Assembly: GCA_027451405.1 (NCBI GenBank)
Contig: DAIDJM010000024.1
Location: 1,411-65,410, forward strand
DNA length: 64,000 nucleotides
Direction: 5' to 3'
DNA from: Acetobacteraceae bacterium
Lineage (GTDB): Bacteria > Pseudomonadota > Alphaproteobacteria > Acetobacterales > Acetobacteraceae
The notes beneath the pieces were generated by a model. It searched no databases. It was given only the letters and a program-made list of their open reading frames with translations, and was not told the DNA's origin. Below, one piece after another: positions 4,441 through 55,892 of the stretch (position 1 is the stretch's first letter; each line of letters opens with the position of its first letter). Made by a program: the position numbers and the translations under genes.

Positions 4441-4863
4441 GTGAGCGAGAGCCTGCACGGGACCTGTGTGGCGCGGGAGGGAGAGGGCGTGTTGCTGCTC
4501 GGGCCGCCCGGGGCGGGCAAGTCGGACCTGGCGCTGCGGCTGATCGGGCTCGGCTTCACGCTCGTCGCGGATGATCGCGTGATCGTGCGGGATGGTGTAG
4601 CGAGCGCGCCGGCAAGGCTGGCGGGGCTTCTGGAAGTGCGGGGGCTGGGCTTGGTCCGGTTGCGGCATGAGGCGGCGGCGCGGTTGCGGCTCGTGGTCGA
4701 GCTCGGGCCGGGCGAGCGGTTGCCGGCGGCGGCGCGGGATGCGCGGTTCGGGCTGCCGCTGGTGTGGATCGAGGCGGGAGCGGCTTCGGCGGCGGCGCGG
4801 GTGGCGCTGGCGCTCGATTGCGCGCTCGGGCGGGTGGCGAGCGTGGCCGGGGCGTTCGCGTGA
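4441..4863 (+). CDS. hprK: HPr kinase/phosphorylase, short alphaproteobacterial form
   Basis: VSESLHGTCVAREGEGVLLLGPPGAGKSDLALRLIGLGFTLVADDRV (P-loop). I chose the GTG start at 4441, which gives 140 aa. The track ORF begins further upstream at 4192. Confidence 0.8.
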   Translation: MSESLHGTCVAREGEGVLLLGPPGAGKSDLALRLIGLGFTLVADDRVIVRDGVASAPARLAGLLEVRGLGLVRLRHEAAARLRLVVELGPGERLPAAARDARFGLPLVWIEAGAASAAARVALALDCALGRVASVAGAFA

Positions 4864-5845: not shown

Positions 5846-6334
5846 ATGATCGGTATGGTTCTGGTCACCCACGGGCGGTTGGCCGAAGAGTTGCGCAAGG
5901 CCATGGAGCACGTGGTCGGACCGCAGCGCGGCGTGGGGACCATCTGCATCGGCGCCGAGGACGATGTGGAAGCGACCCGGCTGGCGATCCAGCGCACCAT
6001 CGAAAGCGTCGATTGCGGCGACGGCGTGGTGCTGCTCACCGACATGTATGGGGGGACGCCGAGCAATCTCGCGATCTCGATGATGGAGCGCGGGGGGGTG
6101 GAGGTGATCGCCGGCGTCAATCTGCCGATGCTGGTGAAGCTGGCGAAGGTGCGGTCGCACCATACGCTCGATGAATGCGTGGGCTGGGCCGAGGCGGCGG
6201 GGCGGAAATATATCGCGGCGGCATCGCACGTGATGGGGAGCGGGGCGACGCCCAATCTGTGCAAGCTCGATCCGCGGAATGGGGCGGCGGAGCCGTCGCC
6301 AGTGCCGATTCCAGCCATCAAGGCGCAGGCCTGA
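5846..6334 (+). CDS. PTS EIIA component, mannose family
   Basis: MIGMVLVTHGRLAEEL... (phospho-His context), then LLTDMYGGTPSN and IAGVNLPMLV. Confidence 0.85.
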   Translation: MIGMVLVTHGRLAEELRKAMEHVVGPQRGVGTICIGAEDDVEATRLAIQRTIESVDCGDGVVLLTDMYGGTPSNLAISMMERGGVEVIAGVNLPMLVKLAKVRSHHTLDECVGWAEAAGRKYIAAASHVMGSGATPNLCKLDPRNGAAEPSPVPIPAIKAQA

Positions 6335-6505: not shown

Positions 6506-6602
6506 GGGGTTTGGGGCCTTTCGGCCCCAATGGGCTCGCCAATGGTGCGCCATTGGACCAAGCACCAATGGCGAGGGGGCAAAGCCCCTGCCCGCTGGAG
6601 GC
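6506..6602 (+). repeat. REP-A copy A4 (forward, long variant with ~40-nt internal insertion)
   Basis: GGGGTTTGGGGCCTTTCGGCCCCAATGGG, then insert CTCGCCAATGGTGCGCCATTGGACCAAGCACCAATGGCGAG, then GGGGCAAAGCCCCTGCCCGCTGGAGGC. Confidence 0.8.
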
Positions 6603-6613
6603 CAGTCTCACGA

Positions 6614-6904
6614 ATGAGCGGCGAAGGGGAGGTTGTCGTCACCCGGCAGGTGACGATCGTGAACCGGCGCGGGCTGCATGCGCGCGCCGCCGCCAAGCTC
6701 GTCACCGCGGCGGAGCGCTATTCCTCGAATGTCGAGGTGGTGCGGGATGGGCAGGCGGTCTCGGCGCGGTCCATCATGGGGCTCATGATGCTGGGGGCCG
6801 GCATGGGGTCCACGATCGAGCTGCGCGCGACGGGGTTCGATGCGCATGAGGCGCTCGATGGTCTGGCCGGTCTCATCGAGTCCGGCTTCCATGAGCAGGA
6901 CTGA
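6614..6904 (+). CDS. ptsH: HPr-family phosphocarrier protein
   Basis: MSGEGEVVVTRQVTIVNRRGLHARAAAKLV (His-15 motif) and SARSIMGLMMLGA (Ser-46 region). The ATG at 6614 was chosen because the track start at 6530 lies inside repeat A4. Confidence 0.85.
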   Translation: MSGEGEVVVTRQVTIVNRRGLHARAAAKLVTAAERYSSNVEVVRDGQAVSARSIMGLMMLGAGMGSTIELRATGFDAHEALDGLAGLIESGFHEQD

Positions 6905-8699
6905 GTCGCGGCGACCCGCGCCGCCACGCGAGCGGCGGCTTTCCGGCATCGGCGTCAGCGCCGGCATCGCGATCGGGCCCATTTTCACCGCGCGCGAGCC
7001 GGCGCTCGAGGTGGCGCGCGGCACCATCGAGGCCGACGCTGTAGATGCGGAGCTGCAACGTCTTGCCGCCTCGGTCGCGCGCTCGCAGAAGCAGCTCGGC
7101 AAGTTGCGCGTGCGGCTCTCGGTGTTGCCCGAGGAAGGCGAGCAGGAAATCGCGCCGCTGATCGATGCCTATGCGCATATGCTGGGCCATTCGCGGCTGA
7201 TGCGGGAGGTGCGGCGGCGGATCGCCGAGCAGCGCGTGACGGCCGAGACCGCGGTGATGGACGAGGTGGAGGCGCTGGCCGCGGCGATGCTCGGGCCGGC
7301 GGGAGCCCGGCGCGACGACGAGGCCGAGAGCCGGCAGCGGCGGGCCGACGAGATCCGCGAGACCGGGCGGCGTCTGTTGCGCAACCTGGTGCAGGCGCCG
7401 TTTCGCAATTTCGCCAACGTGCCGCAGGGCGCGATCCTGTTCGCGGAGATGCTGCGGCCCTCCGACGCGGCGCTGATCGATCCGGGACGGATCGCCGGCA
7501 TCGCGACCGAGGAGGGCGGCGTGCAGGGGCATACCGCGATCATGCTGCGGGCGCTCGGCGTGCCGGCGGTGATGGGTGCGGCCGGGCTGCTCGCGGGGGC
7601 GAAGAGCGCGCGGCTCGCGGTGGTCGATGGCGAGGCGGGGTGTGTCACGCTGAGCCCGCTGCCGCGGACGGTTGCTGATGCGAAACAAGGGATCGCGGCA
7701 CTGGCGCGGGAGCGGCAGCGGCTCTCGCGGCTGCGGCGGCTGCCGGCCATCACCACCGATCAGGAGCCGGTGGAGCTGCAGAGCAATCTCGAATTGCTGG
7801 CGGAACTGCCGCTGGTGGCGGCCTCGGGCGCGTCCGGGATCGGGCTGTTCCGCACCGAATTCCTGTTCATGAACCGCGAGACGCTGCCGGACGAGCAGGC
7901 CCAGGCGGACACCTACCGCGCGGTGATCGAGGCGATGGATGGGGACGGGGTGACCATCCGCGTGCTGGACTGGGGCGGGGAGAAGGATATCGAGGCGCTC
8001 GCGGCGCGCGGGCTGGTGCCGGATACGCTCGATCACAATCCGGCGCTCGGCGTGCGGGGCTTGCGGTTGCTGCTGCGGCATCTCGATCTTTTCGAGACGC
8101 AACTGGCGGCGATCCTGCTCGCGGCGCGGGCCGGGCCGGTGCGGGTTTTGTTGCCGATGGTTACCAATGTCACCGAGGTGCGGGCGGCGCGGGAAATCTA
8201 CGAGCGGGTGGCGCGGCGGTTGCGCCGGCGGGGCGAGAAGCTGCCGGAAAAGCTGCCCGAACTTGGCATCATGATCGAGACGCCGGGGGCAGCGCTCGCC
8301 GCCGACGCGCTGGCGCTGGAGGCGGATTTCTTCGCGATCGGGACGAACGATCTGGCGATGTACGCGCTCGCGGTGGACCGCGCGGCGGCGGATGTGGCAC
8401 CGCTGTACGACCCGCTGCACCCGGCGGTGCTGCGGCTCATCCAGTTCGCGACCGAGGCGGCGCTGCGGCTGCGTATGCCGGTCTCGGTGTGCGGGGAGAT
8501 GGCGGCCAATCCGCTTCTGACGCCGCTCCTGCTCGGGCTCGGCATCCGCAGCTTCAGCATGAACGCCGGCTCGGTTCCGCGGGTGAAACAGGCGGTGCGG
8601 GGGGTCTCAATCGATGACTGCGCACGGTTCGCGCGGCGGGTGATGGAGCAGAGCGATCCGGAGCGGATCGCGGAGCTCGTGGGGAAGTTCGGGGAGTGA
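6891..8699 (+). CDS. ptsI: Phosphoenolpyruvate-protein phosphotransferase (Enzyme I, no GAF domain)
   Basis: GGVQGHTAIMLRALGVPAV (active-site His), FFAIGTNDL and VCGEMA. The ATG at 6891 overlaps the HPr 3' end by 14 nt. Confidence 0.85.
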   Translation: MSRTESRRPAPPRERRLSGIGVSAGIAIGPIFTAREPALEVARGTIEADAVDAELQRLAASVARSQKQLGKLRVRLSVLPEEGEQEIAPLIDAYAHMLGHSRLMREVRRRIAEQRVTAETAVMDEVEALAAAMLGPAGARRDDEAESRQRRADEIRETGRRLLRNLVQAPFRNFANVPQGAILFAEMLRPSDAALIDPGRIAGIATEEGGVQGHTAIMLRALGVPAVMGAAGLLAGAKSARLAVVDGEAGCVTLSPLPRTVADAKQGIAALARERQRLSRLRRLPAITTDQEPVELQSNLELLAELPLVAASGASGIGLFRTEFLFMNRETLPDEQAQADTYRAVIEAMDGDGVTIRVLDWGGEKDIEALAARGLVPDTLDHNPALGVRGLRLLLRHLDLFETQLAAILLAARAGPVRVLLPMVTNVTEVRAAREIYERVARRLRRRGEKLPEKLPELGIMIETPGAALAADALALEADFFAIGTNDLAMYALAVDRAAADVAPLYDPLHPAVLRLIQFATEAALRLRMPVSVCGEMAANPLLTPLLLGLGIRSFSMNAGSVPRVKQAVRGVSIDDCARFARRVMEQSDPERIAELVGKFGE

Positions 8700-8724
8700 A
8701 GGGGGGGGCGTTTTGTTGAGGCGT

Positions 8725-8782
8725 GCCTCCGGCGGCCCGGGCTCTGCCCGGGACCCGCTGGGGCCGAAAGGCCCCAGACCCC
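8725..8782 (-). repeat. REP-A copy A5 (reverse); left boundary of low-GC island 1
   Basis: GCCTCCGGCGGCCCGGGCTCTGCCCGGGACCCGCTGGGGCCGAAAGGCCCCAGACCCC. Confidence 0.9.
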
Positions 8783-8852
8783 GTTTCGTTCCGGTCTGTG
8801 GAGCGTGTTTGCGGGCTCACATCTGGTTCGGGCGGGCCCAATTTTGGTTGCA

Positions 8853-8867
8853 TCGATTGAGAATCGA
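8853..8867. promoter_or_regulatory. Palindrome TCGATT-GAG-AATCGA within a possible promoter (TTGCAT-N18-TAAACT) upstream of the HslV-like gene
   Basis: Perfect 6-bp inverted repeat about 40 nt upstream of the ATG at 8907. The promoter hexamers are weak matches by eye only. Confidence 0.2.
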
Positions 8868-8906
8868 CCATTAAACTAATGGGCTCTTGGTTGGCGGAAC
8901 CTGCGC

Positions 8907-10178
8907 ATGACTGCGGAAATTGCGATAATAAATCGGCAAGCAATTGCCTTGGCTGCGGACAGCGCTGTAACGACCGGCAAAAAAAAGGTTTGGAAGGGTG
9001 GCAACAAGCTCTTCTCCCTTGGTCCTCATAATGACATTGCGGTCATGATCTATGGGGCTGCTGAGTTTTCTGGATTCCCTTGGGAAACAATCATTAAAAC
9101 CTTTCGAGTCGAGAGAGCATTTGTTGAGTTTGATACCGTTGAGGATTGCGCAACCGATCTGGTGGGCTTTTTGCGGGATAACAGATTCGTTGCTGATGAA
9201 GTTAGTGAGCGCGCGCAGTGGGGACTGATTCTTGACCAAATCGAGGAGATAAAGAGGGATTTACCCGAATACAAGTCGAAGACCGAGTTTCGTAAAGTGT
9301 TGTCCGATGCTTGTCGGAAACGCGCCCAAAAATTACAGCAGGATTTCGTGGAAATCGATTGCGCGCCGACGTTAAAGCAGTTTAGTGACTTATGCTCGGA
9401 TAAAATAATCGGGCCGTTCGCGAGGGAAGTGTTTTCTGAGGTTATAACCGCTCGGCTTTTAAAGGATTTGACGGCTGCAATATATGAGTTTTACCGCAGA
9501 AATGTGGAGTCCGACTTCTCAACGGGAGTTGTCGTCGCGGGCTATGGTAAAAAGGAGTTTTTCGGAAGCGTTTTGACGTATACGGTCGACGGGAAAGACG
9601 AGTTGTGCGTCCGGCAATGGAGATCCTTCGAGCTAAACACCAACGCGGCGGACCAGAGAAAGACCGCAATAATTCCGTTTGCTCAGAAAGATATGTTCCA
9701 GCTTTTTATGGAAGGCATTGCTGCACGCCACGTCACCTTTCTTAATGTTTTGCTTAAGGAAATGCTTGACAGTAAATCTGATGGCCTTGTTAATAGTTAC
9801 GTTATCGACCCAGACGCGAGGGTTGTTGAAGCCGCCCTGCAACGGAAAGACAACGAAACTATCTTGAAAAAATTCCGCGAGGAATTCCGGGACTATCGTT
9901 ATCGGAAAGTCATAGAACCGATAATCGACGTGGTAAGGGCGCTTCCCAAGGAAGATATGGCTGACATGGCACACGCTTTGGTGGAGTTGACCTCTCTAAG
10001 AAGAAAGGTCGGCCCTTCACTGGAGTCGGTTGGGGGTCCGGTTGACGTTGCCGTGATCACGAAGTCTGATGGACTGATCTGGATCAAGCGTAAGCACTAT
10101 TTCGATGTAAAGAATAACCAGGATTTCCTATATAGGAAAGAGACTCGGGCGGGGAGGAACGCGCATGCCAAAGTCTGA
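8907..10178 (+). CDS. Decorated HslV/proteasome-beta-like Ntn (T1-type) peptidase homologue, 423 aa
   Basis: After Met the protein reads TAEIAIINRQAIALAADSAVTTGKKKVWKGGNKLFSL, which places Thr1, Asp17 and Lys33. Later motifs are GVVVAGYGKKEFFGSVLTYTVDG and SVGGPVDVAVITKSDGLIWIKRK. This is a long ORF in AT-richer DNA. An in-frame stop at 8877 excludes an N-terminal extension. Confidence 0.6.
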   Translation: MTAEIAIINRQAIALAADSAVTTGKKKVWKGGNKLFSLGPHNDIAVMIYGAAEFSGFPWETIIKTFRVERAFVEFDTVEDCATDLVGFLRDNRFVADEVSERAQWGLILDQIEEIKRDLPEYKSKTEFRKVLSDACRKRAQKLQQDFVEIDCAPTLKQFSDLCSDKIIGPFAREVFSEVITARLLKDLTAAIYEFYRRNVESDFSTGVVVAGYGKKEFFGSVLTYTVDGKDELCVRQWRSFELNTNAADQRKTAIIPFAQKDMFQLFMEGIAARHVTFLNVLLKEMLDSKSDGLVNSYVIDPDARVVEAALQRKDNETILKKFREEFRDYRYRKVIEPIIDVVRALPKEDMADMAHALVELTSLRRKVGPSLESVGGPVDVAVITKSDGLIWIKRKHYFDVKNNQDFLYRKETRAGRNAHAKV

Positions 10179-10341
10179 GGTAACTTCGCTTGGTCGTTCC
10201 ACGCCCCCAGCGGGAAGCGATGAGCGCATAGCCAACTTTCTCAAGGCCTATAGACTGAGCCCTGAGGCAGATGACCCGGTAATTGATGCCGAGAAGGCGG
10301 CTAAGCGAATCATAGCTGCCGTCGAGGCATGTCGGTCATGA
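10165..10341 (+). CDS. Small 58-aa ORF overlapping the HslV-like gene's 3' end (not on ORF track)
   Basis: ATG at 10165 follows GGGAGG (10152..10157). It overlaps the upstream stop by 14 nt. Product: MPKSEVTSLGRSTPPAGSDERIANFLKAYRLSPEADDPVIDAEKAAKRIIAAVEACRS. Confidence 0.4.
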   Translation: MPKSEVTSLGRSTPPAGSDERIANFLKAYRLSPEADDPVIDAEKAAKRIIAAVEACRS

Positions 10342-10367
10342 TTCGGGGCGTTCCACTCTCATTGTGT

Positions 10368-10428
10368 GGGGTCTGGGGCCTTTCGGCCCCAGTGGGGTCC
10401 AGGGGCAAGGCCCCTGGCCGCCGGAGGC
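10368..10428 (+). repeat. REP-A copy A6 (forward); right boundary of island 1
   Basis: GGGGTCTGGGGCCTTTCGGCCCCAGTGGGGTCCAGGGGCAAGGCCCCTGGCCGCCGGAGGC. Confidence 0.9.
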
Positions 10429-10520
10429 GTGGTGGGGACCCGATGAGGCGGCTTTCGCGTGGCGAGGCGCTGGATTGCCGCGCCGGCTTCCCCGGCTCGC
10501 AATGACGGGGAGGGGCCCCG

Positions 10521-11558
10521 TCAGGCGGCGAGTTTTTGCGCGGCGAACAGTTTCAGGAAGCGGTCCACGTCGGTTTCGGTGGTGGCGAAGCTGGTGACCA
10601 GGCGGATGACGGGGTTGGGGACGCCTTCGACGGCGACCCAGCGGTAGAAGCGGGCGCCGGCGGATTCGAGGGCGGCGATCTGGGGTTCGGGGAGGGTGAG
10701 GAAGAGTTCGTTGGCTTCGACCGGGTGGATCACATGGGGGCCGAGGCCGGCGGCGAGGCGGCCGGCCATGTCGTTGGCCTGGCGGGCGTTGCGGAGCCAG
10801 AGGTCGCTTTCGAGATAGGCGTCGAGCTGGGCCGAGAGGTAGCGCATCTTGGACCAGAGCTGGCCGGCGCGTTTGCGGCGGCGTTCGAAGCCGTCGGCGA
10901 GTTTGGGGTTGAAGAAGATCACCGCCTCGGCGGCGAGCGCGCCGTTTTTGGTCGCGCCGAAGCTCAGCACGTCCACGCCGGCCTCGGGGCCGATGGCGGC
11001 GGGGGGGCAGCCGAGCGTCACGAGCGCGTTGGCGAAGCGGGCGCCGTCCATGTGGAGCGCCAGGCCGTGGCGGCGGCAGGCGGCGGCGATCGCGGCGATT
11101 TCGTCCGGTTGGTAGATCGTGCCCCATTCGGTGGCCTGGGTGAGGCTGACCGCTTCGGGGAGCACGTGGTGGACGCCGCCGTCGCGGGCGCGGGCCATGG
11201 CGGCGTCGATCTGGGCAGGGCGGATCTTGCCGTCGCGCGAGGGGAGCGGGATCAGCTTGGCGCCGCCCATGTAAAATTCGGGGGCGCCGCACTCGTCGGA
11301 GGCGATGTGGGCTTCCTCGGCGCAGAGCACGGCGCCGTAGGGGCGGACGATGGTGGCCAGCGCGAGCGCGTTGGCGGCGGTTCCGGTGGCGACCGGGTGG
11401 GCGATCGCCTGCGGGCCGAACAGCGACGCGATTTTCTCGCGGAAGCGGGCGGTCCAGGAATCGGCGCCGTAGGAGGGGGCGGGGCCGTCGTTGGCGGCGG
11501 CCAGCGCCGCGAGGATTTCCGGGCTCACGGGGGCCGCGTTGTCGGACGTGAAGTTCAT
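10521..11558 (-). CDS. ltaE: Low-specificity L-threonine aldolase
   Basis: MNFTSDNAAPVSPEILAAL..., HMDGARFANA and the PLP-Lys context SFGATKNG. Confidence 0.85.
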   Translation of the reverse strand: MNFTSDNAAPVSPEILAALAAANDGPAPSYGADSWTARFREKIASLFGPQAIAHPVATGTAANALALATIVRPYGAVLCAEEAHIASDECGAPEFYMGGAKLIPLPSRDGKIRPAQIDAAMARARDGGVHHVLPEAVSLTQATEWGTIYQPDEIAAIAAACRRHGLALHMDGARFANALVTLGCPPAAIGPEAGVDVLSFGATKNGALAAEAVIFFNPKLADGFERRRKRAGQLWSKMRYLSAQLDAYLESDLWLRNARQANDMAGRLAAGLGPHVIHPVEANELFLTLPEPQIAALESAGARFYRWVAVEGVPNPVIRLVTSFATTETDVDRFLKLFAAQKLAA

Positions 11559-19674: not shown

Positions 19675-19700
19675 CGCGGGATGCGTCCAGGCGGAGGCGT

Positions 19701-19758
19701 GCCGCCGGCGGCCCGGGCTCTGCCCGGGACAAGCTGGGGCCGAACGGCCCCCGATCCC
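19701..19758 (-). repeat. REP-A copy A7 (reverse, degenerate)
   Basis: GCCGCCGGCGGCCCGGGCTCTGCCCGGGACAAGCTGGGGCCGAACGGCCCCCGATCCC. Confidence 0.7.
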
Positions 19759-22897: not shown

Positions 22898-22927
22898 AAC
22901 GTGCGTTCAGATTGACTTATCACGACT

Positions 22928-22986
22928 GCCTCCGGCGGCCAGAGTCTCCGCCTCCGCGCGCCGCTGGAGCCGAAAGGCCCCAGACC
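22928..22986 (-). repeat. REP-A copy A9 (reverse); left half of an empty doublet
   Basis: GCCTCCGGCGGCCAGAGTCTCCGCCTC...GCTGGAGCCGAAAGGCCCCAGACC. Confidence 0.8.
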
Positions 22987-23033
22987 TCGGCATTTGAAAA
23001 ATCGCCTGGTCCGGCGCCGCTTATTGGAAATCG

Positions 23034-23092
23034 TGGGGCTTGGGGCATTTCGGCCGCAGCGGGTCCCGAGCAAGGCCCAGGAATGGTGAGGC
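23034..23092 (+). repeat. REP-A copy A10 (forward, degenerate); right half of an empty doublet
   Basis: GGGGCTTGGGGCATTTCGGCCGCAGCGGGTCCCGAGCAAGGCCCAGGAATGGTGAGGC. The spacer to A9 is 47 nt. Confidence 0.65.
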
Positions 23093-29696: not shown

Positions 29697-29702
29697 GGGG
29701 AT

Positions 29703-29763
29703 GCCGCCGGCGGGCAGGGGCTCTGCCCCTGCACCCCGCTGGGGCCGGTAGGCCCCAGACCCC
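29703..29763 (-). repeat. REP-A copy A11 (reverse); left boundary of low-GC island 2
   Basis: GCCGCCGGCGGGCAGGGGCTCTGCCCCTGCACCCCGCTGGGGCCGGTAGGCCCCAGACCCC. Confidence 0.9.
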
Positions 29764-29764
29764 G

Positions 29765-30457
29765 CTATTTGTGGGCGACGGGGTTAGTTCCGCAATCCGA
29801 GGTCGTTGCCGCGGCCGCTCCGGAGCGGTGGCGTGAACGCGCAGATTGCTCCCAAATCGTCGTATCCGCGTCCCGTAGAGAGACTCCAGCCTTCGCAGCG
29901 GCCTCCTCAAGGAGCTGCAGCGCTCTGACGGCTGTGACAGGCCCCCCGGTTACGTCGCCAACCCATTGCCGGATCCGTATGTCCGGCTTTGTCGTGTTCG
30001 CGCCGAACAGCATCCGAAGGTATTGAAATCCTGCCAATCCAAAACCTCGTATTCTGGGAGTTTGCTGATCGTGGAATGCAGCGCTTTCGGCCCACGATTC
30101 CATGTTCCTGAGCTGAGACTCGCCGTCTCCAGTCCCACTGATTGTCAATGTCCATTTAGCCACTCCGGCAAGTGTATTGGCGCGATCTTTGTGGTTGTAA
30201 CAAAGAGTAGCGCAGACAAAGGCGTGTGGCGACTCGTATGCCGAAAGCGCAGATTCCAAGTCCGAAATCTTCCGTACTTGAGGATGATTTTTTTCAAAAC
30301 TGTTGAGCCGCGGAACCAGAAACCTGTCATAGTCGCGGTTAAGGGACAGAACGCAATCGATGACGCGAACAGCGGGCGGGCGACGCCAGGCTGGGTCTTC
30401 TGATTTCCTGGGCTTGATGTTACGGAGTGCCAGCACCAGGCGCTCTGAGTCCGTCAT
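29765..30457 (-). CDS. Orphan 230-aa protein with HhH-GPD (EndoIII-like) sequence pattern
   Basis: VIDCVLSLNRDYDRFLVPRL..., LCYNHKDRANTLAGVAKW... and IRGFGLAGFQYLRMLFGANTTKPDIRIRQWV parallel the EndoIII pattern LSAQ / YNSKA / GVGRKTANVVL...DTH. The ATG at 30457 follows GGGAGAG. Upstream track residues lie in high-GC or REP sequence. Confidence 0.45.
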   Translation of the reverse strand: MTDSERLVLALRNIKPRKSEDPAWRRPPAVRVIDCVLSLNRDYDRFLVPRLNSFEKNHPQVRKISDLESALSAYESPHAFVCATLCYNHKDRANTLAGVAKWTLTISGTGDGESQLRNMESWAESAAFHDQQTPRIRGFGLAGFQYLRMLFGANTTKPDIRIRQWVGDVTGGPVTAVRALQLLEEAAAKAGVSLRDADTTIWEQSARSRHRSGAAAATTSDCGTNPVAHK

Positions 30458-30591: not shown

Positions 30592-30652
30592 GGGGTCTGG
30601 GCCCTTTTGGCCCCAGTGGGGTCCAGGGGCAAAGCCCCTGGCCGCCGGAGGC
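30592..30652 (+). repeat. REP-A copy A12 (forward); right boundary of island 2
   Basis: GGGGTCTGGGCCCTTTTGGCCCCAGTGGGGTCCAGGGGCAAAGCCCCTGGCCGCCGGAGGC. Confidence 0.9.
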
Positions 30653-30660
30653 CAGGCCGA

Positions 30661-31644
30661 TCAGTTGGGGCGCAGCACGAGAATTTCTGCGCCGGTTCCG
30701 TAGCCGAAAAGATTGGCGCGGGCGGCGACGATGAGCCGGTCGATTTCCGGCACGAAGAGCGAGGTGCGGGCGCCGGATTTCGTCGCGATGCGGCCGATCG
30801 GGCGGTAGGGGGTGCGATCGGTCGCGAAGACATCGACGAAGCCTTCGCCGCAACTGACATAGAGACGTTTGCGCTTTTCGTCGGTGAAGACGTCGTCGGC
30901 GTCGCCGCACGTGTCGAGGCTGGCCCGGATGGTGCCGTCGGCGGCGTTCAGGGCGACCAGTCTGGCCGGATCGCGGAATGCGACGATGACGGTTTTGCCG
31001 CCATCGGCGAGGGCCATCGGGAAATTGCCGCGGAGGTCGGGCGTGCGCCAGGTGGTGAGGGGCTTGCGGGCGCCAGGGTCGAGCACGGCGATTTGTTGCG
31101 AGTCGGGGATGTTCACGAAAAGGCGCCGGCTTGCCGGGTCGAGCTGGAAGCCTTCCGGGTGGGCCGGGAGGGGGATTTGCGCGAGAAGCGCGCCGTTGGC
31201 CGGGTTGAGCGTGGCGATGCCGCCTTCGCCGTAGCCCACGAGAAAGGCGCCGCTTTGCGGATCGACGCGGATATCGTCGGCATCGCTGCCGAGTGGGGTG
31301 GTGGCGATCGGTGCGTCATCGCTGCCGCGGAGCAGGCGGACGGTGCCGTCGCCGCCATTGGCGATGGCGATGGTGTCGGTCCGCGGCGCGTAGCCGATGC
31401 CCTGGGGTTCGTGGAAGCCGGTGAGCCGCCGGATCAGCGTGCCGCGATGGAGGTCGATCACGTCGACGGTATCGTTGCCGAGCTCGGCGACGAGCAGCTG
31501 GCCCCGGGCCGGATCGAATGCCAGGTGATCGATCCGGCCGGTCACCTCGGGCAGCGCGATCGTCCGATCGAGGACGAGCGGCGGCGCGCCGGCCGCCAAA
31601 GCGGCGCCAAACGCCATGACCATCCAAAAGGTAGGCAAGGCCAA
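30661..31644 (-). CDS. Secreted YncE/YVTN-type beta-propeller repeat protein
   Basis: ...RIDHLAFDPARGQLLVAELGNDTVDVIDL... plus repeated blades. A TTG at 31644 after GGAGGG gives the signal-like N-terminus ALPTFWMVMAFGAALAAGA. An ATG alternative lies at 31623. Confidence 0.7.
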   Translation of the reverse strand: MALPTFWMVMAFGAALAAGAPPLVLDRTIALPEVTGRIDHLAFDPARGQLLVAELGNDTVDVIDLHRGTLIRRLTGFHEPQGIGYAPRTDTIAIANGGDGTVRLLRGSDDAPIATTPLGSDADDIRVDPQSGAFLVGYGEGGIATLNPANGALLAQIPLPAHPEGFQLDPASRRLFVNIPDSQQIAVLDPGARKPLTTWRTPDLRGNFPMALADGGKTVIVAFRDPARLVALNAADGTIRASLDTCGDADDVFTDEKRKRLYVSCGEGFVDVFATDRTPYRPIGRIATKSGARTSLFVPEIDRLIVAARANLFGYGTGAEILVLRPN

Positions 31645-31664: not shown

Positions 31665-31725
31665 GGGGTCTGGGGCCTTTCGGCCCCAGCGGAGTGCAGA
31701 GGCGGAGCCTCTGCCCGCCGGAGGC
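31665..31725 (+). repeat. REP-A copy A13 (forward) in a divergent promoter region
   Basis: Identical in core to A1. Confidence 0.9.
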
Positions 31726-31732
31726 AAGACGC

Positions 31733-32596
31733 ATGATTGATCTCGTCCTGGAAAGCCACCGCAAAAACCTGGGCGGTTTCGAAGTGGGCCGCGTGCTGCC
31801 CGCCGCGCCGCGGCGGATGGTCGGGCCGTTCGTGTTTTTCGACCATATGGGGCCGGCGGATTTTCCGGCGGGGATTCCGAAAAGCGTCGATGTGCGGCCG
31901 CATCCGCATATCGGGCTTGCGACGGTGACCTATTTGTTCGAGGGCGAGATCATGCACCGGGACAGTCTCGGCACGGTGCAGGCGATCCGTGCGGGCGAGG
32001 TGAACTGGATGACGGCCGGGCGCGGCATTACGCACTCCGAACGGTTCGAGCGGGCGCGGCTGCAGGGCGACCGGCTGCACGGGATTCAGTCCTGGGTGGC
32101 GTTGCCGGAGGGGGAGGAGGAGACGGCGCCGGATTTCTCCCATCATGCGATGGAAGATTTGCCCGAGATCGAGGGGCCGGGGGTGGTGGCGCGGCTGGTG
32201 GCGGGGAGCGCGTTCGGGATGACGGCGCCGGCACGGGTTTTCTCGCCGATGGTTTATATTCATTGGGCGTTGCGGGCGGGGGCGCGGGCGGAGGTGCCGA
32301 CCGGGCACGCGGAGCGCGCGGCTTATGTCGCGTCGGGGGAGATCGAGGCGGAGCATCGAACGTTCGGCAGCGGGACGATGCTGGTGTTCGCGCCCGGGTC
32401 GGCGCCGGTATTGCGGGCTTTGCAGGATTCGGCGGTGATGGTGCTGGGGGGTGAGAAGCTGGGGCCGCGCTATGTCGAGTGGAACTTTGTTTCGTCCTCG
32501 CGCGAGCGGATCGCGCAGGCGCGCGCGGATTGGCGGGCGGGGCGGATGCGGCTGCCCCAGGCGGACGACCAGGAGTTCATTCCGCTGCCGGAGTAG
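31733..32596 (+). CDS. Pirin-family protein
   Basis: RPHPHIGLATVTYLFEGEIMHRDSLG and NWMTAGRGITHSE. ATG at 31733; the track extension lies in A13. Confidence 0.9.
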   Translation: MIDLVLESHRKNLGGFEVGRVLPAAPRRMVGPFVFFDHMGPADFPAGIPKSVDVRPHPHIGLATVTYLFEGEIMHRDSLGTVQAIRAGEVNWMTAGRGITHSERFERARLQGDRLHGIQSWVALPEGEEETAPDFSHHAMEDLPEIEGPGVVARLVAGSAFGMTAPARVFSPMVYIHWALRAGARAEVPTGHAERAAYVASGEIEAEHRTFGSGTMLVFAPGSAPVLRALQDSAVMVLGGEKLGPRYVEWNFVSSSRERIAQARADWRAGRMRLPQADDQEFIPLPE

Positions 32597-34788
32597 AGGG
32601 TGGCGAGGGCGAGGCCGAGCGCGCCGGCGGCGGCGGCGAGCCAGGCCCAGAGCGCGCCTGGTGGGGCGTAGGCGAAAGCGATGTGCGATCGGCCGGCGGG
32701 CAGGTCGAGGGTCTGGAACAGGTCTTGCGTGCCGAGCGGGGTGGGTTGGCCGTTGATGCGGGCGGTCCAGCCGGGCCAGGCGAGTTCGCGGCGGATGAGT
32801 GTCGCGGGTTGTGGGCAATCGGTGACGATGTCGGTGCGGGAGCCGGCGATGTGGCAGCCGGGCGCGGTCCAGTAGGGTGCCGGATCGGGCAGTTGCCAGA
32901 TCGACATGACGCTGTCGCTGAAGACGAGCGGGAGCGCGATCGACGGCATTATGCCGGGATAAGTCAGGATATAGCGGACGCCGGCGTCGCGCAGCGCGGG
33001 CGCGATGCGGGGCAGGGTCGCGAGATCGCGGGTGGCGAATTGGAAATTGATGCCGTCGCTGCGGGGCATGAAACGCGCATGCACCGCATCGACCCAGTTT
33101 TGCGGCAGGGGCAGATAATTGTGATTGATCTCCGGCACGCCGAACATGGCGCCGTAATTGGCCCAGAACGGGCTGAAGGTGGCGATCCGGGAAAGGCCGG
33201 TGTGGGCTTGCAGGAAGCGGATCGCCTCGGTGTCGACGCGGGCGCCGTGCGGGCCGGCGAGAAGCGCGATCATCGGAATGGCCAGCGCCTGGGCACCGAG
33301 CGCGGCGACGAGCGAAGCTGTGCGGGGTGGAGCCGCGGGGCGCCGGGTGAGAAGATACGCGGCAAGAACAAGTCCCAGGGATAGCAGGATCGAGCCGGCG
33401 GCGAGCGCGTGGGGGGCGGCTGCGATTTGCGGCGCGGACCAGACCAGGGACAGGGCGGCGAGCGGGGCCAGGAAAAGAAGCGGGATGGTCCAGTTTGGGC
33501 GGACGCCTTCCCGCCAGTCCTGAAGCGTGAGGGAAGTCAGAATGGCGGCGGCCATCGACCAGCTCGGCATCATGTAGAGATGGATTGCGGCCTCGTGGAG
33601 CAGCGGGAGGTGCGCGAACAACGCGGTCGTGGGCGGGAAACGTACGGCGCGACTGCCTGTGAGCAGAATCCAGCCGAACAAGGTCCAGCGCAGGGCATTG
33701 TCGGGGCCGCGGCGCCGCAGCGCGGCGAGCGCCAGACAGGCCGGGAGCAGCGGGACCGTGCCGCCGAGCCGATACCAAGCGGCCGAACCATCTATGTGCT
33801 GGAGGTGGGTCGCGAGCAGGCCGCCCTGACTGTAGGGAAAGAGCATCAGGCCGGCGACGCCGGCCCGCCAGCCACCGCCCACGAGGCTGCCGTGCCATCC
33901 CAGGAATTCGCGGGGCAGGGCCTCGAGGAAGGACCAGATGGCGGGGGCGGCGAGCAGCAGGCCGCAGAGCGTGGCGGCGCCGGCACGCCAGGCATAGGCC
34001 AGGCGGGCGCCCCGGGCCTGCCATAGGCGGAGCGTGGCCCAGAGTCCGGCGAAGGCGAGGTCGAGCGCCGCGGTTTCGGGGAAGCCGGCGAGGAAGGTCC
34101 AGGCGGTGCCGAGGATCAGCGCGGGCGGGACGGTTCGCCAAACGGATGGGGTCTGGGGCCTTCCGGCCCCAGTGGGGTCCAGGGGCAAAGCCCCTGGCCG
34201 CCGGAGGCGCGGGGGGGCCCGCTCCGGGTCGCGGGCCTGTTCGAGGCCGAGCAGCATGAGCGGCAGGAAGGCGACCGGCAGGATCGGGCCGTGGGCGAAC
34301 CAGGCGAAGGTGCCGTTCAGCTCGAACAGGATGGCGCCGGCGAGCGCCGGGGCGCGGGCGAGGCCGAGGCGGCGCAGCAGGGCCAGTGTGAAGAAGCCGG
34401 CCAGCGCCATCAGGATCATGCGCAGCAGCAGCAGGCCGTGCGGCAGCGCCAGCAGCAGACCGAAGGGGAGGAAGAAGGCGGTGGTCTGGCCTTCGGCGGC
34501 GAGCGGCAGGCCGATACCGGAATAGGGGTTCCACCAGGGGACGATGCCGGAGAGCCAGTCGCGGGCGGCGAGCGCGCCGAGCGCTTCGGTGGTGACGCCG
34601 GCATTGCCGTCGATCCAGGGCAGGCCGGCGAGGAGGCCCGGGCTGCCGGGCGTGACGAGGCCGGAGACGGAATAGATCGGGTCGAAACGGAACATTCCGC
34701 TGAGCGCCGGCAGGTGGGCGGCGACCGGCAGGAGGGCCAGCAGCAGCCAGACGGGGGCGTCTTGGCGCCAGGATCGGCCCGAACTCAT
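32470..34788 (-). CDS. Large polytopic membrane protein (YfhO/GT-C-like, putative) carrying an in-frame REP-A copy
   Basis: ATG at 34788: MSSGRSWRQDAPVWLLLALLPVAAHL..., then ...VPWWNPYSGIGLPLAAEGQTTAFF... and many hydrophobic segments. REP-A copy A14 is translated as ...PPRLRRPGALPLDPTGAGRPQTPS... The 3' end overlaps the pirin gene by 127 nt. Confidence 0.65.
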   Translation of the reverse strand: MSSGRSWRQDAPVWLLLALLPVAAHLPALSGMFRFDPIYSVSGLVTPGSPGLLAGLPWIDGNAGVTTEALGALAARDWLSGIVPWWNPYSGIGLPLAAEGQTTAFFLPFGLLLALPHGLLLLRMILMALAGFFTLALLRRLGLARAPALAGAILFELNGTFAWFAHGPILPVAFLPLMLLGLEQARDPERAPPRLRRPGALPLDPTGAGRPQTPSVWRTVPPALILGTAWTFLAGFPETAALDLAFAGLWATLRLWQARGARLAYAWRAGAATLCGLLLAAPAIWSFLEALPREFLGWHGSLVGGGWRAGVAGLMLFPYSQGGLLATHLQHIDGSAAWYRLGGTVPLLPACLALAALRRRGPDNALRWTLFGWILLTGSRAVRFPPTTALFAHLPLLHEAAIHLYMMPSWSMAAAILTSLTLQDWREGVRPNWTIPLLFLAPLAALSLVWSAPQIAAAPHALAAGSILLSLGLVLAAYLLTRRPAAPPRTASLVAALGAQALAIPMIALLAGPHGARVDTEAIRFLQAHTGLSRIATFSPFWANYGAMFGVPEINHNYLPLPQNWVDAVHARFMPRSDGINFQFATRDLATLPRIAPALRDAGVRYILTYPGIMPSIALPLVFSDSVMSIWQLPDPAPYWTAPGCHIAGSRTDIVTDCPQPATLIRRELAWPGWTARINGQPTPLGTQDLFQTLDLPAGRSHIAFAYAPPGALWAWLAAAAGALGLALATLYSGSGMNSWSSAWGSRIRPARQSARACAIRSREDETKFHST
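34148..34208 (+). repeat. REP-A copy A14 (forward on + strand) inside the membrane-protein CDS
   Basis: GGGGTCTGGGGCCTTCCGGCCCCAGTGGGGTCCAGGGGCAAAGCCCCTGGCCGCCGGAGGC. Confidence 0.9.
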
Positions 34789-34867
34789 GGCTGTATCCCC
34801 CGTGCCGGCGGCGTCCGCGCTGGACAGGGCACGGCAGCGTCGCCATACTCCATTCGCTTCACTGACC

Positions 34868-35070
34868 CCAAGCGGGAGAGCAGCGGCCGCGAGCCGCCGC
34901 CGAAGGCGCAACCGGCCCCCGGAAACGCTCAGGCAAAAGGACCGCTCGATAGGGGTCGAGGCCTCTGGAAAGCCGGCGCCGGTTTGGCGCCGCACCGAAG
35001 GAGTAAGGGCGCACCCGGGGCCAGACACATGCCCGGGCACGCTCGAATCTCTCAGGTTCACGGACAGAGG
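34868..35070 (+). promoter_or_regulatory. Tandem glycine riboswitch (two aptamers) in the gcvT leader
   Basis: Aptamer 1 reads GGGAGAG...CCGAAGGCGCAA...CTCAGGCAAAAGGACC. Aptamer 2 reads CTCTGGAAAG...CACCGAAGGAGTAAG...CTCAGGTTCACGGACAGAGG. It lies immediately upstream of gcvTHP. Confidence 0.85.
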
Positions 35071-35135
35071 GGGGTCGGCTGTCGCCGGGTGACCGGCATT
35101 CGCTGACCCGGAGCCGTTCCCTGTCCGATTCGCCA

Positions 35136-36212
35136 TTGAAACTGTCGCCGCTCGATACGCTGCACCGCCGGCTCGGCGGGCGCATGGTCGGGTTCGCGGG
35201 CTGGTCGCTGCCGGTGCAGTATGAAGGTGCGCTCGCGGAACATCGGGCGGCGCGCACGCAGGCGGCGTTGTTCGATGTCTCGCATATGGGGCAGGTGACG
35301 CTGCGCGTGACGGCCGGGGAGATCGAGACGCTCGTGCCGGGCGATATCGCGGGGCTCGCACCGGGGCGGCAGCGCTACACGCTGCTGCTGAACGAGGCCG
35401 GCGGGATCCTCGACGACGTGATGGTGGCGCATTGGCCGGACGGTTTCGTGATGATCGTCAACGCGGCGCGGGCGGCTGCCGATCTCGCGCATCTGCGGCA
35501 GGCGTTCGGCGATGCGGCGGTGGAACATGGCGAGGGGCGCGCGCTGCTCGCGCTGCAGGGGCCCGAGGCCGCTGCGGTGATGGCGCGGCATGCGCCGGCC
35601 GCGGTGGCGCTGCCGTTCCTGGGGCTGGCCGAGGTGGCGATCGCGGGTGTCGCGTGCCGGGTGAGCCGGTCGGGCTATACCGGTGAGGACGGGTTCGAGA
35701 TTGCCTGCGCGGGCGAGGGGGCGGTGGCGGTCGCGGAGGCGCTGCTGGCCGAGCCCGAGGTTTTGCCGGCCGGACTTGCGGCGCGGGATACGCTGCGGCT
35801 CGAGGCGGGACTTTGCCTCTATGGCAACGATATCGACGAGGTGACGACGCCGGTGGAGGCGGGGCTTGCCTGGACGATCGGCAAGCGGCGGCGGGCGGCG
35901 CGCGATTTTCCCGGCGCCGAGCCGATCGCGGACCAGCTCGCGCAGGGTGCGCCGCGCTGCCGCGTGGGACTCCGGCCCGAGGGACGGGCGATCGCGCGGG
36001 GCGGGGCGGCCATTGCGGCGCCGGATGGGAGCGAGGCGGGAATCGTGACCTCGGGCGGCTTCGCGCCGAGCTTGGGCGGCCCGATTGCCATGGGTTACGT
36101 TCGCCGCGACCTCGCGGTCCCCGGCACGGCGCTCGGGATCGAGGTCCGGGGGCAACGTCTGCCGGCGCAGGTGGTGGCGCTGCCCTTCGTTCCCCATCGC
36201 TTTGCCCGTTAG
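35136..36212 (+). CDS. gcvT: Glycine cleavage system aminomethyltransferase T
   Basis: FAGWSLPVQYEGALAEHRAARTQAALFDVSHMGQV and SRSGYTGEDGFEI. Confidence 0.95.
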   Translation: MKLSPLDTLHRRLGGRMVGFAGWSLPVQYEGALAEHRAARTQAALFDVSHMGQVTLRVTAGEIETLVPGDIAGLAPGRQRYTLLLNEAGGILDDVMVAHWPDGFVMIVNAARAAADLAHLRQAFGDAAVEHGEGRALLALQGPEAAAVMARHAPAAVALPFLGLAEVAIAGVACRVSRSGYTGEDGFEIACAGEGAVAVAEALLAEPEVLPAGLAARDTLRLEAGLCLYGNDIDEVTTPVEAGLAWTIGKRRRAARDFPGAEPIADQLAQGAPRCRVGLRPEGRAIARGGAAIAAPDGSEAGIVTSGGFAPSLGGPIAMGYVRRDLAVPGTALGIEVRGQRLPAQVVALPFVPHRFAR

Positions 36213-51281: not shown

Positions 51282-51301
51282 AGCGCGGGCGAGTGGCGGG
51301 C

Positions 51302-51397
51302 GCCTCCGGCGGGCAGGGCTCTGCCCCTCGCCATCGGTGCTTGAACCGATGGCGCACACGATGGCGAGCCCGCTGGGGCCGAAAGGCCCCAGACCCC
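51302..51397 (-). repeat. REP-A copy A15 (reverse, long variant); left half of a doublet
   Basis: GCCTCCGGCGGGCAGGGCTCTGCCCCTCGCC...CCGATGGCGCACACGATGGCGAGCCCGCTGGGGCCGAAAGGCCCCAGACCCC. Confidence 0.85.
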
Positions 51398-51426
51398 ACT
51401 ACTTTAGAAAATCGTCTCGGCCAGCT

Positions 51427-51477
51427 TGGCTTTTTCAGCCCCAGCGGGTCCCGGGCAGAGCCCGGGCCGCCGGAGGC
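51427..51477 (+). repeat. REP-A copy A16 (forward, hairpin 1 degenerate); right half of a doublet
   Basis: ...CAGCCCCAGCGGGTCCCGGGCAGAGCCCGGGCCGCCGGAGGC. Confidence 0.65.
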
Positions 51478-51518
51478 GCGCCTCAACGAAACCGCGTTCC
51501 GATCGACAGGGAAAGGCG

Positions 51519-51801: not shown

Positions 51802-52879
51802 CGGGCGTCTCCAGCATCCAGGTGCAGGCGCCGAGTGTGGGGTCGGCGCGGAGGGTGAGACTCCCGGTATGGTGTGCGGCCTCTTCCCTTGCGAGCGGGT
51901 CGCCGTCCAGGGCCGCGATGACGGCGGGCGCGGCGCGGAGCGTCAGCGCGGCCGGAGCGCGGCGGGTGGCCTCGCGCAGCGCGGCGAGCGCGGCCGCGTG
52001 GGGGCCGGCGAGCAGCTCGTGGAGCGGGGGGTAGCGGCGGGGGCGCACGATTTCGGCGAGGCCCAGCCGGGTGAAGCCGAGCAGGCGGGGGCGGAGCGGG
52101 TCGGCGGCGAGGGCGGCATCGAGGTCGGGGCCGAGGGCGCTGCGGCGTCTGGCGGGCAGGCCGGCGAAATCGATCAGGATGGCGCCCGAGAGGTTGCGGA
52201 GCCGGATCTGGCGGGCCAGCGCCGGGAGGGCGGCCCGGTTGGCGGCGAATTGCGCGGCGGGTTTGGGGGCGCGCCCGGCGGTGGCGGCCGCCATGTCGAG
52301 GTCGATGGCGGTGAGGGCCGGGGTGGGGGTGATGGTGGCGCGCAGCCCGCCGGGCAGCGTGGTCTCGGGGGTTTCCAGGGCTTCGGTTTCGTCGAGCAGG
52401 TCCGGGTCGGGGTCCGCGCGGGTGAGGCGGCCGGGATAGGCGGCGGCGAATTGGGCCAGGAGCGCGTGGGAGGCGACCTGGATCGGCGCCCCGGGGTGGA
52501 GGGCGGCGAGTTCGGCGAGAGGACCGGGGGCAGGCTCGAGCAGGCCCAGCCGGTCGATCGGCTGCTGGGGGACGCGGGCGGTGACGCGGGGGCCTTTGCC
52601 GCCTTGGGGGGCGCGGAGGATGCGGACCGTGAGCCAGGCGCCGATGCCGGGCGCGCCCTCGGTTTCAGTGTCGGGGAGGAAGGCTTCCGCGCCGTCGAGG
52701 GTGACGAAGCGGCCGGCCATGGCGGGGACGATGGCGGCGACCCGGGCCTGGTGAAGCTCGCCCGGCTGGAAGCGCTGGCCGGGGCGCCAGATCTGGTAAT
52801 GTTCGAGCCCGCCGGGGCCGGTCAGGGCGAGGCGGCGTTCACCGGGGCTCGCCCAGAGATGGATCGCGCTGGCCTTCAA
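51791..52879 (-). CDS. Rne/Rng-family ribonuclease (short form)
   Basis: S1-like region [30 protein letters not shown] and catalytic-core-like ...[10 protein letters not shown]... and ...AILIDFAGL... The TTG at 52879 overlaps the maf stop (TTGA). Confidence 0.7.
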
Positions 52880-53502
52880 GTGATGGAGTCTGGGGCCTCT
52901 GGCCCCAGCAGGTCCAGGGCGGCGCCCTGGCCGCCGGCGGCGCGCCACCCCAGCCCCTGCAGCAATTGGGCGGTCTCGTAGAGCGGCAGCCCCACCACCC
53001 CCGAATAGCTGCCCGAGAGCGCCCGCACGAACCCGGCGGCAAGGCCCTGGATCGCGTAGCCGCCGGCCTTGCCCTGCCACTCGCCGCTCGCGAGGTAGGC
53101 GCGGCGCGCGGCATCGCTGAGGCGGGCGAAGGTGACGATGCTTTCGCAGAGGCGCTCGCGAAGGCGGCCCGCGGGGTCGATCAGGGCAATGGCCGTATAG
53201 ACGCGGTGGCGCCGGCCCGAGAGCAGGCGGAGGCAGCGCTCGGCTTCGACCAGGGTCGCGGGTTTGGGGAGGATGCGGCGGCCGGCGGCCACCACCGTAT
53301 CGGCGGCCAGCGTATAGGCGCCGGGTTCGGCGGCGGCTTCGGCCTTGGCGCGGGCGAGCCGGCGGGCGAGGGGGCGGGGGAGTTCGCCCGGGAGGGGCGT
53401 CTCGTCGATCGCGGCGGGCGCGATGCGGTCGGGTTCGATGCCGAGCTGGGCGAGGAGGGCGAGCCGGCGGGGACTCGCGGAGGCGAGGATCAGCGGGGCC
53501 AA
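52876..53502 (-). CDS. maf: Maf-like nucleoside triphosphate pyrophosphatase with a REP-derived C-terminal tail
   Basis: [17 protein letters not shown], ...KAGGYAIQG... and [10 protein letters not shown]. The last ~22 codons are read through REP-A copy A17. Confidence 0.85.
52885..52941 (+). repeat. REP-A copy A17 (forward) inside the maf 3' end
   Basis: GGAGTCTGGGGCCTCTGGCCCCAGCAGGTCCAGGGCGGCGCCCTGGCCGCCGGCGGC. Confidence 0.8.
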
Positions 53503-55779: not shown

Positions 55780-55804
55780 GGCGGGCGAGGCGGTATCACC
55801 CTGC

Positions 55805-55832
55805 GCCTCCGGCGGCCAGAGGTTCTGCCTCT
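55805..55832 (-). repeat. REP-A partial copy A18 (hairpin-2 half only)
   Basis: GCCTCCGGCGGCCAGAGGTTCTGCCTCT. Confidence 0.5.
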
Positions 55833-55892
55833 TGATCGACGAAACCGTCTGCCCCCGGGGACCGGGCAGAGCCCTGCCCCCGGCGACGCGCC

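Follow-up and report, generated by a model that had tools for sequence, protein, structure and literature searches.

Repetitive extragenic palindromic (REP) sequences and REPINs, the doublets that they form, are among the commonest bacterial repeats, and where they have been linked to genome plasticity it has mostly been as targets of insertion sequences (ISs) and as markers of old core DNA. The centres of REPs and of bacterial interspersed mosaic elements (BIMEs) are documented as preferred targets of mobile DNA, reportedly by Tobes and Pareja (2006) among others. A REPIN is defined structurally as an inverted REP doublet that folds as a hairpin (Bertels and Rainey; PMC3337134), the palindromes of a REP family have a conserved tag, GTAG or CGTC, at one foot (PMC3733652), and REPs are targets of ISs such as IS1397, the IS621/IS110 family and ISPpu9/10 (PMC8450116). 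Here we analyse a 64-kb stretch of DNA (64,000 nt, hereafter the window; positions 1,411 to 65,410 of contig DAIDJM010000024.1) from an Acetobacteraceae bacterium, with a GC content of ~70%. In it a palindromic repeat, REP-A, occurs singly, as tight inverted doublets and, at two places, as inverted pairs around low-GC genes. REP-A is a well-defined and widely shared repeat of the REP/REPIN type. We describe the two REP-bracketed segments, the doublets to which their borders can be compared and the genes that they hold, and weigh how the arrangement may have arisen.

Results

Two low-GC segments lie between inward-facing REP-A arms

A REP-A arm is ~60 nt long and contains two hairpins. Its head reads GGGGT and then an 8-bp GC hairpin 1, CTGGGGCC-loop-GGCCCCAG; its tail, in the copies of the host genome, is CCGCCGGAGGC. 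A first-pass annotation, made from the letters of the window, had placed two low-GC segments inside inward-facing REP-A pairs, and a repeat search found the arms as claimed, with 1585 and 828 nt between them. The left arm of pair 1 (8723-8782, minus strand) has its tail, GCCTCCGGCGG, 23 nt past the ptsI stop codon and turns its hairpin-1 head towards the cargo, whereas the right arm (10368-10429, plus strand) begins with its head 26 nt after the stop of a small open reading frame (ORF) and ends with its tail 91 nt from the 3' end of ltaE. The repeat search matched 8747-8782 with 10368-10403 (89% complementary) and 8725-8741 with 10412-10428. The left arm of pair 2 (29701-29763, minus strand) has its tail 4 nt past the stop of an ornithine decarboxylase gene and the right arm (30592-30653, plus strand) has its tail 7 nt from the 3' end of a beta-propeller gene (30661-31644, minus strand); here the matched arms, 29703-29763 and 30592-30652, are 61 nt long and 85% complementary. 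These four junction genes had been called correctly in the first pass. The left core flank of pair 1, ptsI (6891-8699, plus strand), is the last gene of an hprK-HPr-ptsI operon, and the right core flank, ltaE (threonine aldolase; 10521-11558, minus strand), closes a dapB-ltaE operon, an arrangement conserved in relatives. The four arms around the cargoes therefore have their tails 4-91 nt from core-gene stop codons, as do ordinary doublets and singlets. All four have a perfect or near-perfect hairpin 1, which places them among the best-conserved copies, and they carry the native host tail; both right arms have the hairpin-2 variant CAGTGGGGTCCAGGGGCAARGCCCCTGG, the commonest in other genomes.

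The drop in GC is confined to the interiors, again as first proposed: 0.50 between the arms of pair 1 against 0.71 on each side, and 0.58 (0.55 in the core) between those of pair 2 against 0.66 and 0.68 outside. When a uniform criterion is applied, these two are the only low-GC islets in the window, and both are bracketed. Given their atypical composition with sharp borders (cargo GC 0.49-0.55 against 0.66-0.71 in the flanks), their patchy distribution and their association with mobile elements, the segments are horizontally acquired gene cassettes, foreign and mobile in character. The repeat search detected no terminal or direct repeats belonging to the cargoes themselves besides the REP arms, and no target duplication; there is no integrase ORF between the arms of either pair, and the arm-cargo-arm unit is single-copy. 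In pair 1, 57 nt of GC-rich sequence (8783-8839) separate the left head from the AT-rich cargo, and the first ~12 nt of this inner flank resemble the motif that flanks REP-A heads.

Tight REP-A doublets are discrete units

The three tight empty doublets that had been reported with their heads facing each other are indeed present. The first, at 2036-2204 (2036-2095 minus, 2142-2204 plus), lies between co-directional minus-strand genes; the second, at 22927-23092 (22927-22988 minus, 23028-23078 plus), lies between convergent genes and has a diverged right arm; and the third, at 51301-51478 (51301-51397 minus, 51431-51478 plus), has a nested third hairpin in its left arm and is missing half of hairpin 1 in its right arm. 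A fourth, absent from the first-pass annotation, extends from 19699 to ~19850 and consists of a reverse arm (19699-19758) and a degenerate forward arm. The spacers are 46 nt long in three of the four (those starting at 2036, 19699 and 22927) and 33 nt in the other, with 46-52% GC. The head-to-head geometry, a reverse copy and then a forward one, holds for 13 of 13 tight doublets, three in the window and 10 in other genomes, and is independent of the orientation of neighbouring genes, as illustrated by a doublet between dnaK and dnaJ in another genome (locus L114) and by the two minus-strand genes around 2036-2204. The segment 2030-2210 folds as a single long hairpin in which the arms pair with each other (-74.8 kcal/mol, z = -10.7). 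Because the geometry is invariant, the spacer is typically 46 nt and the whole folds as one hairpin, the doublet is clearly a discrete unit of ~170 nt and not a chance juxtaposition. Within the window, each of the seven reverse copies is followed on its right by a forward copy as the next REP, five of them within 50 nt and two across a cargo, and all five unpaired copies are forward.

These observations suggest to us, with a probability of roughly 0.45, that REPIN-like doublets at the junctions of convergent operons existed before the foreign cassettes and took these up between their arms. The order of events and the mechanism that we infer are as follows. A doublet would already have been present where two convergent operons meet, and the cassette would have integrated into its spacer by non-homologous capture, leaving the two arms on the core genes with their tails outward. 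The REP arms would then be a landing site rather than the ends of a mobile element. Capture might have involved a break at the hairpin-prone doublet followed by end-joining or, alternatively, attack by a recombinase, since lost, that targeted REPs.

The cargo genes

Cargo 1 comprises a gene for a 423-amino-acid protein (8907-10178, plus strand; GC ~0.47-0.51) and a 58-amino-acid ORF (10165-10341, plus strand) that overlaps its end. The larger protein is matched over its full length by PHROG 5990 (E = 2.9e-89) and has no match in Pfam, NCBIfam or PADLOC. Its AlphaFold model (pLDDT 90.9) has a proteasome-beta/HslV-like Ntn-hydrolase fold with two long helical insertions: the top 50 Foldseek matches are all 20S proteasome subunits, the best with E = 1.3e-5, probability 1.00 and a TM-score of 0.55 on the target. 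Across 61 homologues neither Asp18 nor Lys34 varies and Thr2 is conserved in at least 90%; the three residues correspond to the catalytic set Thr1/Asp17/Lys33 of the proteasome. There are more than 4000 homologues, scattered through Alphaproteobacteria, the best non-self match being 57% identical. In the other genomes inspected (loci L119-L122) an ORF of ~60 amino acids always follows the homologue and, since it holds the equivalent position there, the two genes are, by their arrangement, a two-gene module. Several satellite-phage and prophage records from Streptococcus have relatives with ~30% identity at their ends or close to them, and one homologue adjoins an MmeI-type restriction-modification gene and transposases. 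The module is thus a candidate for an uncharacterised phage-borne or defence system built around a predicted threonine protease. At one further locus (L118), a 19-nt inverted repeat, GGTAGTGGGTCAGTTTGAA, at 4474-4492 and 8056-8074 flanks a block of 3.5 kb, which contains a cargo 1 homologue and stops at the edge of the contig; the module there may be part of an element with terminal inverted repeats at its borders.

Cargo 2 is a single gene (29765-30457, minus strand) for a 230-amino-acid protein with no assigned function and no match in Pfam, NCBIfam, PADLOC, PHROG or the PDB. Its family is small, with ~460 clusters, the best of which is 60% identical. Homology stops at about residue 208-212, as do the homologues themselves, and the reading frame continues for ~20 codons and a TAG stop in GC-rich sequence (29765-29830) that runs into the flank of the REP-A head. 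This end appears to be a junction scar, at which the native C-terminus and stop codon would have been replaced.

REP-A structure and copies

The hairpin-1 pattern of REP-A, GGGGTCTGGGGCCNNNNGGCCCCAG, allowing at most three mismatches, has 13 matches in the 64 kb against 0.01 expected from shuffles; the pattern given in the first pass was also written GGGGTCTGGGGCC-NNNN-GGCCCCAG. A profile built from clean copies finds 16-17 REP-A copies per 64 kb, or about one per 4 kb. Besides those in the pairs and doublets above, the profile search located plus-strand copies at 793-854, 6506-6603, 31665-31727 and 34148-34209, a diverged plus-strand copy at 52878-52942, and a partial minus-strand copy at 55804-55834 with a doublet remnant reaching ~55890. 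The stem of hairpin 2 occurs in variants related by compensating changes (CCCGGGC/GCCCGGG, GCAGAGGC/GCCTCTGC and CCAGGGGC/GCCCCTGG), with double changes at 3 of 11 predicted pairs, and the palindromic structure is maintained across extragenic copies. Some copies carry GTAA, GTGA or GTAG 1-2 nt outside hairpin 1, whereas copies in other genomes have an A-rich flank only. The AAGTRAT motif that the first-pass annotation described next to hairpin 1 in several copies is real and corresponds to a loose motif, nnnACTTyrG, reading outward ~10 nt beyond the head, but it is a general part of the REP-A arm. Apart from this ~10-nt head motif, the inner flanks of the cargoes have no significant homology to the doublet spacers.

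Two copies, 6506-6603 and 51301-51397, contain a nested extra hairpin of ~41 nt, CTCGCCAATGG...CCAATGGCGAG, between hairpins 1 and 2; they differ from each other by compensating changes and make up a sub-family with an insertion. The first of them is situated in the gap between hprK (5846-6334) and HPr (6614-6904), from which rapZ and EIIA(Man) are missing; the gene order in relatives is hprK-rapZ-EIIA(Man)-HPr-ptsI. The copy at 34148-34209 is inside a long predicted minus-strand ORF with a weak YfhO-like match, a doubtful gene model, and AT skew is strongly positive over 32470-35000. The diverged copy at 52878-52942 overlaps the predicted 3' end of maf (52876-53502, minus strand), where that gene meets one of the RNase E/G family. 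Rfam has no match to REP-A; its sole matches in the window are two tRNAs and a tandem glycine riboswitch with two aptamers (34863-35077). The riboswitch lies upstream of a gene at 35136-36212 that we take to be part of a glycine-cleavage operon. We found no description of the REP-A family in the searchable literature, where a literal sequence search gave chance matches only.

REP-A in other genomes

In a scan that took one genome per species, the head pattern turned up in at least 111 blocks, nearly all from Acetobacteraceae and other Rhodospirillales. They include the genera Acidocella, Acidisphaera, Roseococcus, Rhodospirillum, Phaeospirillum, Insolitispirillum and Pararhodospirillum, as well as many Acetobacteraceae metagenome-assembled genomes. 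Conservation of hairpin 1 across the sampled loci follows by construction from the search pattern. Hairpin 2, however, lies outside that pattern and recurs in other genera at equal spacing and with almost identical sequence, so that REP-A is common to several genera. Among the copies of other genomes that we inspected, the host's tail was not seen in that form; most end in CCTT. A few matches fall in bins labelled Solirubrobacterales, Ruminococcaceae, Gammaproteobacteria and Asticcacaulis, where mis-binning is possible, and in Rhodospirillum sp. A1_3_36 the REP-A core is embedded in a longer conserved element.

Over all REP-A loci the median distance to the adjacent gene is 23 nt for tails and 130 nt for heads, an asymmetry indicative of a targeted position of insertion or of selection at the ends of genes. 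Among singlets, 82 of 121 tails are turned towards the 3' end of a gene (82 to 39). Of 33 adjacent REP-A pairs with 0.3-5 kb between them, 11 are arranged forward-reverse, 10 forward-forward, nine reverse-forward and three reverse-reverse. In other genomes, the head-inward (reverse-forward) pairs enclose genes such as those for an ABC ATPase, PhaR, an alpha/beta hydrolase, a GFO/IDH/MocA oxidoreductase, a LysR protein, TonB and an AI-2E transporter. REP-A also brackets single genes in every orientation; in the window, the aminotransferase gene at 859-2028 has a forward and a reverse copy at its ends, and the propeller gene has two forward copies. GC is lower within the head-inward pairs of other genomes (p = 0.0013), a result that we discount because the ~130 nt of non-coding DNA at heads against ~23 nt at tails biases the measure in this very direction and largely explains it, and because the enclosed genes have native codon scores and ordinary functions. 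Two loci offer partial parallels to the islets. In L004 (436-1959) a head-inward pair surrounds a lower-GC orphan ORF, and in L056 a REP copy with its tail against a core helicase gene has its head 75 nt from the end of an orphan gene with 45% GC. Single genes sit snugly between head-inward arms in L004 and in a further locus, L020.

The junctions in relatives

The sequence clusters of LtaE, the cargo 1 protein and the aminotransferase have one member each, so the protein collection holds no relative above 90% identity; exact look-ups with PtsI and cargo 1 returned no contig. The closest relatives, with 77% (LtaE) and 84% (PtsI) protein identity, differ in synteny. They keep the dapB-ltaE and hprK...HPr-ptsI operons, ptsI does not adjoin ltaE, and there is no REP-A at either the ltaE or the ptsI end. 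In these relatives, ltaE is followed on its 3' side by genes for a BglII-like endonuclease and an MT-A70 methylase (L112, 6487-7870), and ptsI by a Phd/YefM-type antitoxin ORF (L123, 6582-6827); further relatives have yet other genes after ltaE and ptsI. Scanned with the decarboxylase, metagenomes yielded 79 loci at up to 71% identity, none of which has the propeller gene, cargo 2 or REP-A.

Discussion

Several lines of evidence weigh against capture of the cassettes within pre-existing doublets. There are two cases only, and the argument that reverse copies are always paired applies to the window alone; singlets in other genomes split 42:29 relative to the G-rich strand (p = 0.15, not significant, in a GC-skew strand-bias test). 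The inner flanks of pair 1, at 57 and 26 nt, exceed a 46-nt spacer and have no significant homology to it beyond ~10 nt. Head-inward long-range pairs, at nine of 33, stand at the random level with no enrichment, most of those elsewhere hold ordinary genes with native codon usage, and of seven low-GC islets found in other REP-A genomes just one lies against a REP. No empty-site allele was found among the available relatives. The ptsI and ltaE operon ends are variable junctions that gather accessory genes across the clade, with or without REPs, and may vary for reasons unrelated to them. Finally, REP-A tails abut neighbouring genes generally, so that much of the pair geometry is expected for independent copies at the ends of convergent operons. 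In favour of capture, rough arithmetic puts the number of intergenic sites with a two-armed REP-A at ~6 of 25-50, which gives a probability of 0.014-0.058 that both islets fall in such sites by chance, a post hoc figure with n = 2; the spatial association between islets and doublets is suggestive and statistically thin. The first-pass idea that doublets act as insertion hot spots is thus plausible and unproven: that the doublet is a unit and that seven of seven reverse copies are paired speak for it, whereas the frequency of head-inward pairs and the single REP-associated islet among seven elsewhere speak against it. That annotation had named, as an outcome that would tell against it, that inverted pairs flank ordinary genes just as often, and across the sampled genomes this is close to what we see, with nine of 33 pairs, mostly around ordinary genes.

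The same observations bear on whether the REPs had any part in the acquisition at all. If REPs were placed independently at the ends of core operons and foreign genes landed between convergent operons, the REPs being non-causal, the density of REP-A (about one copy per 4 kb), the closeness of its tails to genes, the preference of singlet tails for 3' ends, the existence of REP-A-bracketed single genes in every orientation and the variability of the ptsI and ltaE ends in relatives that have no REP-A there would all be expected. Moreover, given a REP at all four junctions, end preferences alone would yield the observed orientation with a chance of ~0.12. Coincidence nevertheless requires a REP at all four islet borders when roughly a quarter of intergenic sites hold one (~0.004 if independent), and it sits uneasily with the lack of any unpaired reverse copy in the window and with tight doublets that are clearly units; we consider it unlikely, though to be taken seriously. 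Late arrival of REP-A, in new non-coding DNA at the borders of islets already in place, would fit the good conservation of the four arms beside several decayed empty doublets. It would, however, need four separate, correctly oriented events, the tails abut core genes rather than cargo, and REPs are known to mark old core DNA and to stay out of regions acquired recently (PMC3390384), so that this order of events is scarcely probable.

Two further explanations give the arms an active role. In one, a donor arm-gene-arm segment would replace a recipient doublet by homologous recombination within the 50-60-nt arms, for which the two-hairpin core, nearly unchanged across genera, would provide the homology; both cargo right arms carry the variant commonest elsewhere, and L004 and L020 show single genes between head-inward arms. 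Such exchange is improbable when set against cargo GC of 47-55% compared with 58-74% in the REP-A hosts seen, arms that keep the host genome's own tail, and no cargo homologue found between REP-A arms elsewhere; the conservation of hairpin 1, moreover, is due to the search pattern. In the other, which the first-pass annotation had offered as its second idea, the segments would be REP-bounded, non-autonomous elements with passenger genes, mobilised by a REP-associated tyrosine transposase (RAYT) or in the manner of IS200/IS605. RAYT genes are typically bracketed by inverted REPs (PMC3337134, PMC3390384), and the arms of both pairs are complementary. This explanation fails its defining tests, and we regard it as very improbable: the unit is single-copy, cargo 1 homologues in five further contexts lack REP-A nearby, the ends are inverted where those of IS200/IS605 are hairpins co-oriented on one strand, and the tail is native. 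A tblastn search for a Y1 transposase or RAYT, run on the window and on ~0.8 Mb of REP-A loci, detected none, although its E. coli RayT query is a weak probe.

A broader form of our preferred reading, capture inside pre-existing doublets, would be that in Acetobacteraceae and Rhodospirillales foreign cassettes are captured preferentially in the doublet spacer. A hairpin-forming repeat inherited vertically would then also serve as a distributed platform for integration without an integrase, and both islets, L004 and L056 would be its products. We think this doubtful but worth stating. If doublet spacers do capture genes, small accessory and defence cassettes would have a structural, integrase-free way into core regions, and sites of capture would be predictable from sequence. 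What is documented here is a widely shared REP family, two clean REP-bracketed islets and an uncharacterised proteasome-like module that travels with phages and satellites.

How does this arrangement compare with known systems? The contents of the REP-A pairs differ from REP-targeting ISs in having no transposase, no terminal repeats of their own and no target duplication. IS200/IS605 elements and their non-autonomous derivatives, the palindrome-associated transposable elements (PATEs), resemble them in hairpin-forming ends and single-strand logic, whereas the REP-A units lack TnpA and TnpB, have inverted arms and are single-copy. Integron cassettes with attC sites of the VCR type are likewise compositionally odd orphan genes beside hairpin repeats; we rejected an integron reading, as neither co-oriented attC arrays nor an integrase is present. 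In Neisseria, minimal mobile elements and repeat-bordered variable sites hold accessory cassettes that vary at the junctions of conserved genes and are exchanged through homologous recombination in the flanking genes. Cassettes at the junction described here vary likewise, ltaE being followed by a restriction-modification system in the closest relative, but synteny outside the junction is not conserved. Among proteins, the closest parallels to cargo 1 are proteasome homologues bearing helical or multiple insertions, known as the PHI and PMI groups (Fuchs et al. 2021, PMC8665760), which share its proteasome-beta fold, the Thr1/Asp17/Lys33 equivalents, helical insertions after H1/H2 and between H3/H4, and the lack of a propeptide; the ~60-amino-acid partner and the prophage, satellite and restriction-modification neighbourhood are what we observe here for the cargo 1 family.

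Overall, what we describe is a repeat of the REP/REPIN kind together with two ordinary horizontally acquired islets. Like the BIMEs of E. coli, REP-A forms mosaic units of inverted REPs of differing subtypes, and like REPINs it has inverted arms, a short fixed spacer, a long-hairpin fold, numerous extragenic copies and many decayed singlets. It differs from REPINs in that no RAYT was located for it within the 64 kb of the source genome and the sampled loci (with the weak probe noted above), in that each arm is itself a ~60-nt double hairpin, in that its core is common to several genera and families rather than to one species group, and in that two doublet-like pairs hold 0.8-1.6 kb of foreign DNA.

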